Source: Rhina ancylostomus (lineage: Eukaryota). Taken from it: a stretch of 64,000 nt of DNA. The stretch's first letter is position 1, and the number at the start of each line of letters is the position of its first letter. A model generated the notes under the pieces. That model was not told the origin of the DNA. It did no database searches and saw only the letters and a list, made by a program, of their open reading frames with translations. The DNA lies in NCBI GenBank assembly GCA_030265395.1, contig JARFYF010000065.1, forward strand, positions 11,017,692-11,081,691, in the 5' to 3' direction. This document shows, piece by piece, positions 48,133-55,105 of this stretch. Made by a program: the position numbers and the translations under genes.

Positions 48133-48233
48133 CTGCTCCTCATGGAGTAGCTGGAGCTTTTTGGCTTTGCTCTGCCGGTAGTATTCCATGATCATCATGG
48201 CCGCGTAGATCTTCCCTACCGTGAGATCCGTAG
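48133..48233 (-). CDS. CACNA1A: CACNA1A exon 40 (IQ-like calmodulin-binding motif)
   Basis: cctgcag|CT ACG GAT CTC...GAG CAG|gtacta; 101 nt; [33 protein letters not shown]. Confidence 0.97.
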
Positions 48234-49979
48234 CTGCAGGAGGGGAAAGGTAAGAGGATAAATTAGGAAGCAGGAAACAAAAGTTGGCCTCATTATTAGT
48301 TGCTTGTCAACATCCCATCCCCAGCCTTACATGTTAGCTTTTCACACATATTTCCTTCCAAATTCCAAAAACTGGTTAACTTTCACAAACAATCATTAGG
48401 GTGAATAAATCTTTTGACCAACTCATTTACATCAACTCCAATGCTTCGTCATGAAGGACAACTCCACAGAAAGTAAAATTCATGAGCATTCAACTTTGGA
48501 GTTACCTATTAGATCACAGATTAGATTAGACTAGAATAATTTATTGCCACATACACCAGGGTGCAATGAGATTCCTTGTTACAGAATCCTGCAGTACATT
48601 AGGAAGCCTTTTGTTCCATCATACCTATGCCTCTTTGGAAAAGCTACTGAAATCACCCCATAATGCAACTCTTCCCAAAACCCCCAAAATTAAACTTCGT
48701 CAAACACGTACCCAATTAGCCCAAATCTACCACCATTCCAGATGGTGGAATTTAGATCTTAGCTGATCTCTATGTGGAAACCAAATCCTCCCATTTCTCC
48801 CTCTAGTTCCTTTGCCAATTATTTCAAACCTATGGCTCTGGTTACCACACAATTGCCAGAGGAATCGGTTGTAGGAAGGAAGAGTTCACACCACCCCAAT
48901 ATCTCACTGACCTGGACAGCCTGTAGGATCAGAGTATGATGAGTTAAACCAGCATTTTGGAATTACGCACACTAGTGCCTGGCTGTAAGGTTTAAAGCAG
49001 GTGGACTCCTCAAATAATAAAACAGTAGGAAGATATAAAGCGATTAATAAAAATCAAAAGGGCAATATTACCATGGTTGTAAAGTGCTTAATAAAGTTCC
49101 AGTAAACCAATATAACTATAGCTGCAAAGTGATTAAGAGAAAATAAAAGAGGCATTGTCACCACTTACTGTGTCTGTTTTATTTATGGTTTACATGGAAA
49201 GAAAGTCTTTATGGTTGAGATGAATTCTCTATAGTAGACAATCATATATTAATTGTGAGTAAAATATGTCAATAAAACTTTGATCCTCTATTGTTCTAAC
49301 TTTACGAGGATGCATATAACCTGTTGTCCAAGGTAATAGGACAAATCAGTCCAAAATATTTCGTGCTGGGACCATTCAATCACCACAAAAATAAGGCAAA
49401 GAGTTCAAAGTGGGAGAACTGGAATGGGATGGCTATGATAAATCAGCTATAAAGAGAAGCTAAAATCAGAGGGTGGGCTTTCGGAAAATGAATGCTGAAA
49501 CCACAATAAATGTCTGATGAGGAATCTGTGGTGAAGACACCAAAGTAGGAATCTTCCTTCGAACAGTGCAGATAAGTTACAACGTGAAAAATGACAGGGG
49601 CAAAAAAAATTGCAATTGTTGGAAATCTGAAGCAAAAACAGAAAATACTGGAAATGCTCAGTAGGTCAGGCAGTATCCATAGAGAGAGAAACAGAATTAG
49701 TATTTCAGGTCAATGACTCTTCATCAGAACCGGAAAAGTAAGAAAACAAGCATGTTTTAAATTGCAGAAAGTAGGTGGAGAGAACCCTTCCTTTGATAGG
49801 GTGTAGACCAAAGTTGTCAAGGTAACCATTACTGCCAGAATTTGAAGTGGTGGTGTTGAAGATAAGGCTGGGACCTGGTTCTAGTACTGCCATTTTTTGG
49901 TTTAAGTCTCCACCATCAGAGATATGCAGCTCCACTTTGTACCAGAGAAACACTGGTTTCACAGCATGAACAATTCACT

Positions 49980-50842
49980 GTTACTTAAACAGATGAGGAA
50001 ATCCAGCTATCAAGAACCGACAATAACAAAGCAAACATGCTGGGCATAGCTTGTGGCCACAGAGCTCTTTGCCTCTCAAAAAAGCAGCTGAAATTAGAAA
50101 CTTTGGTGCATTGTGATGATTGAGCTAATGAAACAATAACAAGCACAGTAGGCAGTATATGTGAAGGCAATGTATTACAAAGAGATTTTAGTTGACTGAG
50201 CAAATGGGCAAGGTTGTGGTTAATGGATTTCAATGCAGATAAGTATATGGTCTTTCACTTGGACCTAAAAATAGAACAGATAAAGTCTAAATGATGTAAA
50301 GCAAGAACAGTGGAGGTCAAAGGAGACTTGAGGGTCCAGGTACATTAAAATACCTTCTTTCTATCAGGAGGTTTGCAGCACAAGCGGGTGGAAACAATAT
50401 TTCAGCAATTCAAATTCCAGGCTAGACCACATATGGAGCACTGGAAGCATTTCCAGGCAACACACCTATGGAAGGATGTATTGAACGAGCTGTGACCCAG
50501 ATTTACCAATGAGCCTGATTAATTTACGAGGCAAAATTGTACAAACTAGGGTTGTATTCATTGGAGTTCAGAAATTAAGGACAGATTTCATTGAAGTTTT
50601 CAAGGGAACTAATTAAGTGAATTGAGAAAAAACAATTTTCACTGTTTCTGGAGTCCATGGCTGGGCAACAAGGTCTAAAATTTAGAGCCAATCTTTTCAG
50701 GAATGAAGTTAGGAAATACATCTACATGCAGGAGATGATAGAAATTTGGAACTCTCTTCCAACAGGTATTTGATAACAGGTCAATTGCTAATTTAAAATC
50801 GAAGATTGGTAGTTTTTAAAACCATACGGGGCAAAGGCAAAT
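49980..50842 (+). mobile_element. Degraded CR1 LINE 3' part
   Basis: Decayed CR1 RT C-terminal coding (gagacttgagggtcc, ggctagaccacatatggagcactg) leading into the 3' tail. Confidence 0.7.
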
Positions 50843-51123
50843 TGATATTGGCATTGGTTTATTATTGTCACTTGTACTGAGGTACAGTGAAAAACTTGTC
50901 TTGCGTACTGATCGTACAGATCAGTTCATTACACAGTGCAGTTACATTGAGTCAGTACGGAGTGCATTGAGGTAGTACAGGTAAAAACAATAACAGTACA
51001 AAGTAAAGTGTCACAGCTACAGAGAAAGCGCAGTGCAATAAGGTGCAAGGTCACAACAAGGTAGATCGTGAGGTCAGAGTCCATCTCATCGGATAAGGGA
51101 ACCGTTCATTAGGGAACCGTTCA
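50843..51123 (-). mobile_element. Young 5'-truncated LINE 3' tail (same family as 16740-16950)
   Basis: ggtttattattgtcacttgtactgaggtacagtgaaaaacttg is shared with 16744-16790; CCAATN-like tail repeats occur at the left end. Confidence 0.7.
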
Positions 51124-51129
51124 ATCCTT

Positions 51130-51385
51130 TGCTGCCTTGGACACCTATTGATCTCTGCCTCAAATACACCCAATGACTTGGCCTCCACGGCCGCCCATGG
51201 CAACAAATTCCACAGATTCACCGCCCTCTGGCCAAAGAAATTTCTCCCCATCTCTGTTCTGAATGGGCGCCCTCCAGTCCTGAAGTCGTGCCCTCTTGGA
51301 CCAGACTCCCCTACCATGGGAAACAACTTCGCTACATCTACTCTGCCCAGGCCTTTTAACATCCGAAATGTTTCCCTGAGGCTCC
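51130..51385 (-). mobile_element. CR1 LINE 3' fragment (young)
   Basis: LKGLGRVDVAKLFPMVGESGPRGHDFRTGGRPFRTEMGRNFFGQRAVNLWNLLP. Confidence 0.88.
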
Positions 51386-51630
51386 CCCCTCTCAGTTTAC
51401 ACTGAGGTTTGTAACCAACGCAAAATCCATGAGGTAATGGCGTTTAAATTGGCCGCCGCCCTCTCTGGAATGGCGTTTGAACCGCTAACTGTGCTGCCGG
51501 GTCCAGGCCGTCTGCTCTCCCAGCCCCACCCTGAGCGGTCCCAACGCGAGTGGGGCGGGACACGGCGTGTGGCCGGTGCTGTACACACCGGGCTCCTGTA
51601 CTGTGGTGTGTGAGGTCGAGCAGGGCTCAC

Positions 51631-51802
51631 CTGAACGCTGTTCCCCAGGGTGCGGATGTAGTCGGCCTCTGTGAGTCTGCAGACGTGCAGCTTGTTAGGT
51701 TTCTCCATGTTCTTCACCCACTTGTTGGCCTGACCCTGCGGGTCGATCATGAGCGGCCAGCGATGGGCAGAGGTCACGATGATGGCGTTGTCCACCGAGA
51801 AC
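51631..51802 (-). CDS. Axonemal dynein heavy chain exon C (start of AAA5)
   Basis: ctctcag|G TTC TCG GTG...GTT CAG|gtgagc; 172 nt; FSVDNAIIVTSAHRWPLMIDPQGQANKWVKNMEKPNKLHVCRLTEADYIRTLGNSVQ, carrying the RWPLMIDPQGQANKW AAA5 signature. Confidence 0.92.
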
Positions 51803-51884
51803 CTGAGAGGAGAGTAACAGTGTGTGAGGGCACCCGTTCCCGGGAACAGCAGCGTCTCGTCGGAGCGTCGGGAAGAACACTTAC

Positions 51885-52018
51885 GTGTCCCGTGGCAGTC
51901 CATGCAGCTGCCACTCCATGATGCTGACGGGGTCTCCCAGGGTGCTGGACAGGGAGAAGGCACTGGAGACCGGGATTAGCTTCTGCTTGCACATGGACAG
52001 CCATTCCTTCAGTGCGTT
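51885..52018 (-). CDS. Axonemal dynein heavy chain exon B
   Basis: ggcag|AAC GCA CTG...GAC AC|gtaagt; 134 nt; NALKEWLSMCKQKLIPVSSAFSLSSTLGDPVSIMEWQLHGLPRDT. In phase with exons A and C. Confidence 0.9.
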
Positions 52019-52116
52019 CTGCCAGAGAGGGAGCAGACGAAACAGCAGGTGAAACACTGCGGGCTGGGGCTCCGACACTGACAGCGGCTGGAGGTGGCAC
52101 GGGCACACCAGAGGGA

Positions 52117-52700
52117 CAGAGCACAGAAGAGCACAGAGAGCACAGAACACAGAAAGCACATAGACCACAGAGAGCACAGAGCACAGAGACCACAGAGCAC
52201 AGAGAGCACAGAGCACAGAGAGCACAGAGCACATAGACCACAGAACGCAGAGAGCACAGAACGCAGAGAGCACAGAACGCAGAGAGCACAGAGTACACAG
52301 AGAGCACAGAGTACACAGAACACATAGACCACAGAACACAGAGAGCACAGAGCACAGAAAGCACAGAGCACACAGAACACATAGACCACAGAAAACAGAG
52401 AGCACAGAGAACACAGAACACATAGACCACAGAGCACAGAGCACATAGACCACAGATCAGAGAGAGCACAGAGCACAGAGTACACTGAACATAGAGAGCA
52501 CAGAACACAGAGAGCACAGAACACAGAGAGCACAGAACACACAGAACATATAGACCACAGAGCACATAGACCACAGTGCCAGAGCACATAGAGCACAGAG
52601 CACACAGCACAGAGCGTACAGCACATAGAGTACACGGAGCACAGAACACAGAACAGAGAGCACAGAGCACACAGAGCACAGAGCATAGAACAACACAGCA
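52117..52700. repeat. Degenerate (AGAGCAC)n-type tandem repeat in the dynein intron
   Basis: Repeated agagcac / agaacac / atagaccac units; the source of the spurious Cys/Val/Leu-rich ORFs. Confidence 0.95.
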
Positions 52701-52985
52701 CAGGAAGAGGCCCTTCAGCCCACCATGTCCACACTGACCCTGATCCCAATTCAATCCCATCCCCCTGCAGGGCCCACATCCCTCCATTCCCTGGTGTCTG
52801 TGGGACCCGTGCCCCACACCGCTGGGTCACACCCAAACCCCGTGCCACCACTGACGGCCTCCATGTAACCACACGCAGAAGGGGAGGGAATATCCCGCAG
52901 CCGCTGCTGTCTGAGGAACCCGGAGGTTGCCCGTCCTGTTACCGGATGTCCGTGCAATGGGGCAGCGACTGGCAGGGCGCCTCAC

Positions 52986-53157
52986 CTGCCGGTAGTCGGG
53001 GGTGAAGGGCCCGAGGTAGGCCACCATGCCGGTGCTCAGCAGCGTGTCGCCGACCATGTTCTGGTAAGAGTTCTGCAGCTGCTTCACGATGCTGGTCCAC
53101 CGCCCCCTCTCCCCTCCCAGCCCGGCCAACAGCTCCTCCGCACGGTCCAGCTTCACC
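52986..53157 (-). CDS. Axonemal dynein heavy chain exon A (stalk CC2 region; DNAH3/7/12-like), nested in CACNA1A intron 39
   Basis: ttgcag|G GTG AAG CTG...CGG CAG|gtgagg; 172 nt; VKLDRAEELLAGLGGERGRWTSIVKQLQNSYQNMVGDTLLSTGMVAYLGPFTPDYRQ, with the dynein GLGGExxRW and YLGPF motifs. Confidence 0.9.
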
Positions 53158-53184
53158 CTGCAACCGACACGCAGCGTTAGGGAG

Positions 53185-53287
53185 GGAGAGGACCCCAGCC
53201 CGGGGGGAGAGGACCCCAGCCCGGGGGGGAGAGGACCCCAGCCCGGGGGGGAGAGGACCCCAGCCCGGGGGGGGAGAGGACCCCAGC
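53185..53287. repeat. GC-rich minisatellite (about 22-24 bp unit gaggaccccagcccggggggga) running into a 100-N gap
   Basis: At least 4 copies with a variable G-run, directly visible. Confidence 0.95.
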
Positions 53288-53518
53288 NNNNNNNNNNNNN
53301 NNNNNNNNNNNNNNNNNNNNNNNNNNNNNNNNNNNNNNNNNNNNNNNNNNNNNNNNNNNNNNNNNNNNNNNNNNNNNNNNNNNNNNNCAGCAGAAGAGGC
53401 TGAATAGCTCCTGTTCAAACACAGTACTGACAATAAGGTGGCAGGAACCTGGCCTACTGGTTGGTTGCAACATAGGGAGATGACAAGGGGAAAGAATTTA
53501 AAAAAATGCACTACTTAC

Positions 53519-53626
53519 ATTTATGAGGAGTAACCAGCAGATCAATTGTCTTCTGGGAGAGGGTTGGCCAAATGGACATCATCTCCTTCCTCAACTCGCG
53601 GTCCATTTGGTGCTTGTCAGCCCCTC
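53519..53626 (-). CDS. CACNA1A: CACNA1A exon 39 (pre-IQ)
   Basis: ttattag|GA GGG GCT GAC...CAT AAA T|gtaagt; 108 nt; [35 protein letters not shown]. Confidence 0.96.
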
Positions 53627-54774
53627 CTAATAAAGAGGTAGGCAATATACGATTGATCAATACATTTAACGCTGATTAAGCCATCATGGCTGCAAGAAAT
53701 GTCTCTATAGGCAACCACTGAGGAGCCAGATTTCCTTTGCCACCAGATTAAAATCTCATGTACCTAGTTCATGAGGTGCAATAATCACAATTGATTCGGC
53801 ACAGTCGCTATATCTTGCAGTGGCTTAGGTCAGACCTTGCAGCAGGATATTTTCCCCAGCCAGAAATAAAATGGACCTGAAGCTCCCACATGTCTTAACA
53901 TCTTTAGCTATTAAGGAGGAATGGGATGCAGATGAAGAGAAAACACTTCCGCTGGTTGGGAAGTCTAGGGTTAGGGCAAGGACTCTAAATAAAGGCAGAG
54001 TTTCAGGAGTAAAGTTCAGAAATACCTCCACATACATGGAAATTTGGAATTCTATAACAAATGGGATTTGAAAGTGAATCAACTGTAAATCTTAGATCTG
54101 AGATTGGTAGATTTCAAAAATATTAAGAGAAGCGGAGCAATAGGTTATGTTACAGATCTAGCTCGATCTCATCAAATGGCAGAACAGGCTTGAGGGATTA
54201 GATGGCCTTCTGATGTTCCTCTCAGGGACCACAAATTAATGAAGTGCAGTGATGAGAAAATAAGGCAGTTTTTCTTTGCTTAAAATAAGATTCCTGAATT
54301 AGTATTCAAGGAAGTCATGAGTTAAACTGAGGTTTGTATGCAGGGTAAAGGAGGACTAGATCTGGCCTCAAATGACACCACTTTTAGTTGCCGTCCGAAG
54401 CATCAGGAGGAAACACACAGAACTCCGGTCAATGTCTCACCCAAGGCCACTTGCCACAAGAAGGTGGTCTCCCAGAGGCTCCCGATGGCAGGTGTCAACC
54501 GTTCAATTTGCTGACTCAAAGGTGAGAACAAACTCAGGGACTAATTCACCAACCTGACCAAAAGATGCCCCTGTGCACCCTCTAGATGTAACGTCCAATG
54601 GGAGAAAGTTCCTTGCCTAGTGTGACCTATGTGTGCGTCCAGCAACGTGATCGACTCGACTGAAATGGAGGAGNNNNNNNNNNATTAAATGAAGGCCCTG
54701 CCAGCAATGCTCACATCCTGTGAACGAAGAAAAGTAAATGATCGCCCTGTGACCCATTCAATAGCATAAGACGG

Positions 54775-55105
54775 TGATCCTGATAGAGTAGACATGGAGA
54801 GGATGTTTCCATTGGTAGGAGGGTCTAGGATCCGAGGGCACAGCCTCAGAATAAAGGGATGTCCCCTTAAAACTGAGATGTGGAGGAATTTCTTCAGCCA
54901 GAGGATGGTGAATTTGTGGAATCCGCTGCCACAGAGGGCTGTGGAGGCCAAGTCATTGGGTGTATTAAGGCAGAGATTGATAGGTTCTTGATTGGTAAGG
55001 GGGTTAAGGGTTATGGGGAGGAGAATGGGGTTAAAAAAATCAGCCATGATTCTATGGTGGAGCAGACTTGATGGGCCAAATGGCATAATTCTTCTATATC
55101 TTATG
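54775..55105 (+). mobile_element. CR1 LINE 3' end (young)
   Basis: MERMFPLVGGSRIRGHSLRIKGCPLKTEMWRNFFSQRMVNLWNPLP, followed by the tail. Confidence 0.88.

Follow-up and report, generated by a model that had tools for sequence, protein, structure and literature searches.

Transposition of gene fragments that retain their introns is known, both in Pack-type elements and in LINE-linked capture. The block of dynein exons described here shares with such events the presence of exons together with introns, inside a foreign intron and next to repeats. A true transposed copy, however, leaves an intact donor and has bounded ends, whereas in our case it is precisely this piece that is missing from the donor, and a gap of N forms one of the two ends. 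Another close system is of a technical nature: in the bird assembly described by Peona et al. (bioRxiv 10.1101/2019.12.19.882399), GC-rich and repeat-rich DNA is under-assembled, contigs can be chimeric, and scaffolds contain gaps with a fixed length of 100 bp. Our locus displays comparable signs, with an island of high GC content, a gap of 100 N and a repeat where the join lies, but theirs is a bird, and the exact step proposed below for the join is ours.

As for the dyneins themselves, four DHC7 variants are given for animals in Table 1 and Supplementary Table S3 of Kollmar 2016 (PMC5100056), sea urchin having DNAH7, DNAH4, DNAH3 and DNAH12, and human three. In the same source, sea urchin DNAH4 corresponds to DHC7B. 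A zebrafish list (PMC6008050) contains three DHC7-class genes, and DNAH4 is absent from that list. A literature search on sharks and rays, which covered its sources in part, found no description of a fourth DNAH3/7/12-class gene; vertebrates that have kept DHC7B may be shown in Fig. 4 and Fig. S13 of Kollmar 2016.

We analyzed a stretch of 64,000 nucleotides (hereafter, the window) in which an earlier note had reported three dynein exons inside an intron of the calcium channel gene CACNA1A. These exons are real, but very probably they were misjoined into the CACNA1A intron by an assembly error, and their native gene lies on another scaffold, C51. That gene has a gap where the exons are missing, the exons fit it in phase, and the corresponding site is empty in two relatives. 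A misplaced contig had already been preferred in the earlier note, with a recent real insertion as its alternative; the gap in the donor at these exons and the intron of the two relatives (organisms D and E), which is devoid of the block, favor the former and weigh against the latter.

The three exons lie on the minus strand of the window and are intact as had been claimed, with AG acceptors and GT donors throughout and a spliced length of 478 nt that forms one open frame. Exon 1 (52986..53157; 172 nt, phase 2 to 0) encodes the end of the stalk coiled coil and matches positions 281-333 of the Pfam domain MT (E 4.9e-7), while exon 3 (51631..51802; 172 nt, phase 2 to 0) encodes the start of AAA5 and matches positions 13-68 of AAA_9 (E 5.2e-19), both matches being above the Pfam cut-off. 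A Pfam search with exon 2 alone (51885..52018; 134 nt, phase 0 to 2) returned no match; this exon lies inside an ungapped alignment of 247 aa to a DNAH3-like paralogue. The succession of stalk (MT) and AAA5 (AAA_9) identifies the block as part of a dynein heavy chain, and the best matches of exon 3 among solved structures are DNAH7, a Chlamydomonas axoneme chain, DNAH12 and DNAH3. Within the intron that separates exons 1 and 2 resides a simple tandem array of 7/16-bp units (52109..52703), to which no strand is assigned.

The contrast in composition that had first been noticed is also confirmed: GC amounts to 59% over the block (51141-53287) and to 39% in the remaining host intron (0.59 vs 0.39), and CpG differs sharply as well. 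Depending on whether an adjoining young repeat is counted, the size of the block is 2,447 bp or, without it, 2,147 bp. When 715 of its bases were used as a DNA query, the single match in the assembly was the window itself, that is, the block is single-copy there. Genome-wide dynein searches listed no dynein exon elsewhere inside the window, as the earlier note had found.

On either side of the block lie exons of the host gene, also on the minus strand, at 53519..53626 and 48133..48233, which we take to be exons 39 and 40 in human numbering. The identity of the host was tested by Cav2 scores on one exon, 53626-53519, for which Cav2.1 (CACNA1A) is the best match at 52.7 bits (Cav2.2 scores 32.3 and Cav2.3 29.9), in agreement with the original assignment; the next exon is attributed to the same gene from its position and sequence. 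The edges of the block are also as described earlier, none of the features there being assigned a strand. Toward exon 39, the putatively misplaced piece ends in a GC-rich 22-bp minisatellite (53180..53287), at which contigs of two sequencing runs, X1 and X2, likewise fragment, and a 100-N scaffold gap (53288..53387) joins it to the host. Toward exon 40 are found high-copy repeats, at about 50841-51385. One is a repeat fragment, presumably CR1-like (51141..51385), which adjoins the dynein intron, has a high summed contig depth and could be of either locus. The other is a very high-copy repeat (50841..51140), whose summed contig depth in X1 is ~1.2 million, compared to ~5 for unique DNA. As this repeat is missing from the site in organisms D and E, its lineage-specific insertion here or nearby is likely.

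Dynein searches uncovered a gene of the DNAH3/7/12 class on the plus strand of scaffold C51 (41,697,894-41,793,421; L071-L074, L121-L126). From AAA1 to the C-terminal exon, its exons are all on the plus strand and in protein order, and half of the region is N. There are four matches to AAA1 exons, starting at 41.698 Mb; AAA4, the stalk, AAA6 and the lid are represented by further exons and AAA5 by part of one, and the series closes at 41.793 Mb with a C-terminal exon. Over the 100 kb sampled (41.695-41.801 Mb minus 6 kb), N accounts for 50,107 bases and the remainder has 54% GC, so that the block (0.59) resembles C51 (0.54) and not the host intron (0.39).

Querying with neighboring parts of the DNAH3-like protein revealed on C51 a GC-rich stalk exon standing alone, followed by 4,818 N (L073:372-5189; C51:41,761,372-41,766,189) and then by a contig whose end holds the first part of the next AAA5 exon. 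The stalk exon covers MT 216-272 and ends in phase 2, the phase in which exon 1 of the block begins; exon 3 of the block ends in phase 0, the phase in which the next C51 exon (AAA_9 69-94) begins. Joined in the order C51, block, C51, the five exons run through phases 0-2-0-2-0 with 0 stops and encode 247 aa. This chain aligns with the DNAH3-like paralogue over 247 columns with 0 gaps (54%), and its Pfam positions tile from one exon to the next (MT 216-272, MT 281-333, AAA_9 13-68, AAA_9 69-94). The search for a native dynein locus devoid of these exons, which had been recommended as a check, hence led to a gap on C51 exactly where they belong. The gap is large enough for the block, at 2,147 or at 2,447 bp, and its specific length suggests, from the way in which sized gaps arise, that there is unread DNA at this place. 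A BLAST comparison of the block and its flanks with the edges of the gap gave a short repeat match only, and no overlap. After a real insertion the donor should keep its exons, which it does not in the assembly; the gap itself is unread N, and could therefore hide a second copy of the block.

The block and the host intron were compared with contigs, as opposed to raw reads, of five sequencing runs (X1, X2, X3, X5 and X7), of which X3 was too small to contribute. In X5 (organism D), a single contig of 2,539 bp covers 53388-54811 and 49798-50821 with 48 letters in between, where the window has 2,566. In X7 (organism E, from another study), a 2,579-bp contig continues from 53388 into 30 loose letters identical to those of X5, and 15 of these have a single match in the window, at 50828, immediately ahead of the young repeat. 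As both contigs cross the intron in this way, block and repeat are missing from this site in organisms D and E, and the comparison with related species that had been proposed yields two relatives in which the CACNA1A intron is free of the block. Since D and E are different organisms, an insertion that took place after the split would be expected to leave the same picture. On block exon 1, X5 and X7 have no contig at 85% likeness, which we did not count as evidence.

The block is probably not the only displaced piece of this gene. A GC-rich lone dynein exon on C64 (L113:4007-4171) joins a C51 exon in phase. Further GC-rich lone exons were found on C94 (L036:1501-1644), next to a minisatellite and a 100-N gap, on C104 (L111:4202-4483), flanked on both sides by copies of the window's repeat 50841-51140 (83% and 91%), and on C22 (L118:4194-4292), directly after a 100-N gap; GC-rich lone exons also lie on two tiny contigs, C48027 (L083) and C14272 (L103), with sizes of 684 and 1,549 bp. 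All six probably belong to the C51 gene, the assignment being based, for all except C64, on GC content and on protein positions not found on C51. Among 10 lone matches sampled, 3 (C104, C64 and C22) were taken as probable pieces of the gene and 7 were not. Taken together, these pieces point to a pattern of misplacement that is genome-wide.

The reading that comes next supposes a real and recent copy, made at the DNA level, of the three exons with their introns into the CACNA1A intron, the donor copy being hidden in the C51 gap; we consider it improbable. In its favor, there is no N at the junction on the exon-40 side, and block contigs reach up to ~2x the depth of host contigs, with 5.7 and 8.6 versus 4.1-6.2 in X1, and 8.5 and 10.7 versus 4.4-7.2 in X2, values that do not represent copy number and in which GC bias is uncontrolled. 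This greater depth, the unread state of the C51 gap and the absence of a same-species contig spanning a junction count against a misassembly, as do the missing overlap with the gap edges, the raw codon counts of exon 1 given below, and the fact that D and E are other organisms. X1 is identical to the window, of which it may be the source, and splits block and host DNA between short contigs; the host contig stops within the repeat, neither junction nor the empty site is crossed by any X1 contig, and 53307-53634 is without cover. In X2 (organism B), the block is present at about 93-94% in contigs of its own, unlinked to the host, and the host contig extends 31 letters beyond 53388.

A real copy would nevertheless require a donor that happens to be unassembled at exactly these exons. 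It would also call for many separate insertions, because another six stranded pieces probably belong to this gene, several of them lying beside 100-N gaps or repeats. The block contigs of X1 show 0 other letters, that is, no second variant. Moreover, the host intron is in phase 1 and the block goes from phase 2 to phase 0 across 478 nt, and since these phases differ, the block, if spliced in, would be expected to shift the CACNA1A frame. A more elaborate form of the same idea, in which a lineage-specific sense-strand copy is one among several repeat-carried pieces of a single GC-rich dynein gene and its frame-shifting exons are skipped by the channel transcript, appears to us just as improbable.

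Still less credible, and by some way, is a real cut-and-move event or a heterozygous structural variant, after which the C51 gene would now be broken or decaying. Such a fate would suit the long branch of the C51 gene (0.41, compared to 0.15-0.19 for its three paralogues) and the numerous amino-acid changes that separate exon 1 from its counterpart in organism B. In this exon (52986-53157), 14 of the 172 nt differ from X2, while host intron DNA differs at ~2-3%; among the differences listed (40 of 47) are 11 non-synonymous codons and 1 synonymous codon, and on raw counts (11 vs 1) the exon looks unconstrained. The distribution of the changes argues otherwise. Only 1 of the 11 amino-acid differences falls on the 36 sites, among 56, that are common to the DNAH3-like and DNAH7-like proteins (P 5e-5), and with its conserved sites spared, exon 1 behaves as part of a fast-evolving working gene and not as a dead copy. 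Third positions of the exon are 95% G/C, and its fast evolution possibly involves GC-biased conversion. Further against a gene that has lost these exons are the absence of stops in the five-exon chain and the sized gap of 4,818 N, which fits the block and would imply that DNA is present there and unread. Contaminating DNA from another organism would explain the sharp difference in GC and CpG from the host intron, but its probability is negligible, being largely refuted already by the run contigs, with both block and host DNA found at 0 differences in X1 and at 92-97% identity in organism B, and by the five-exon chain, which ties the exons to a gene on a scaffold of 42 Mb within this assembly.

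If the block was misassembled, as we think very likely, it would represent 2.1-2.4 kb from an ordinary gene for an inner-arm dynein, located on C51. The contig on the exon-40 side would have been extended through the very high-copy repeat at 50841-51385, the presumed place of the false join, into a copy situated near the dynein exons, until the GC-rich minisatellite halted the extension; scaffolding would then have linked the contig to the exon-39 side with a default gap of 100 N. In the animal, the C51 dynein mRNA would include the block exons, which would supply the stalk-to-AAA5 segment of a single-headed motor of cilia or sperm, and nothing but the repeat insertion would lie in the CACNA1A intron. 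The nested arrangement of dynein and CACNA1A therefore very likely does not exist as biology, and the assembly seems to scatter pieces of GC-rich, gappy genes into the introns of other genes. The signature of such misplaced pieces would be a GC island with a 100-N gap on one side and a high-copy repeat on the other, and where a foreign exon is met in an intron of this genome, gaps at the donor locus should be checked first.

The block had been described as the stalk-to-AAA5 region of a dynein resembling DNAH3, DNAH7 or DNAH12. The class is upheld, but the gene is none of these three and appears to be a fourth paralogue. In protein searches with exons 1 and 3 of the block, other dyneins reached at most 75% identity. 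Scores against solved structures identify the gene on C112 as DNAH3 (1273 vs 1016 bits), that on C1 as DNAH7 (86.6 vs 72.4) and that at C94:24.26 Mb as DNAH12 (117 vs 98). As each of these loci owns a copy of this segment, the block comes from a fourth gene; orthology with any one of the three was rejected on this ground, and the best match moreover switches between DNAH7 and DNAH3. The C51 gene is 54-59% identical to each of the three paralogues over 372-482 columns. In a tree (9 rows, 321 columns) whose alignment stacks matches on the DNAH3-like protein and is thus biased toward it, with nameless outgroup rows, the C51 gene groups with DNAH3/7/12 with a support of 91, which places it in the DHC7/IAD3 class; within this class it is sister to the DNAH3-like gene, with a support of 74 in this reference-biased alignment.

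Judged from its sequence, then, the C51 gene is a fourth, old and fast-evolving member of the DNAH3/7/12 class. It is like the DHC7/IAD3 dyneins DNAH3, DNAH7 and DNAH12 in its structure matches and its grouping in the tree, and it is predicted to work like a single-headed inner-arm dynein; it is distinct from these three, each of which occupies a separate locus with its own copy of the segment. It may be an old vertebrate duplicate of DNAH3. Possibly, it is a candidate for the DNAH4 (DHC7B) type of sea urchin, which is absent in humans: sea urchin DNAH4 is the fourth animal DHC7 variant, and the C51 gene is likewise fourth and old. Should it be a DNAH4/DHC7B orthologue, its presence in this apparent cartilaginous fish would help to establish when vertebrates lost that motor.

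Other features of the dynein complement came to light during these searches. In the DNAH3-like gene (L003:691-2925; C112:16.27 Mb), the whole region is contained in one open stretch of 745 codons, while its paralogues use many exons for it. A very divergent dynein-like gene is located at C7:503,082-529,936 (L069), with 22% to the DNAH3-like protein over 253 aa and open frames of 1,353 and 376 aa. Lone dynein exons that are AT-rich or could not be placed were also recorded (L091 at C36:12.78 Mb, L092 at C55:18.39 Mb, L102 at C58:9.73 Mb, and L112, L114, L115, L119 and L120). Those on C36, C55 and C58 were considered as pieces of the C51 gene and rejected for their AT-richness. The lone exons of this set are far from any dynein locus and some of them contain stops; they could be additional pieces that were misplaced, or else ancient remnants of other dyneins.
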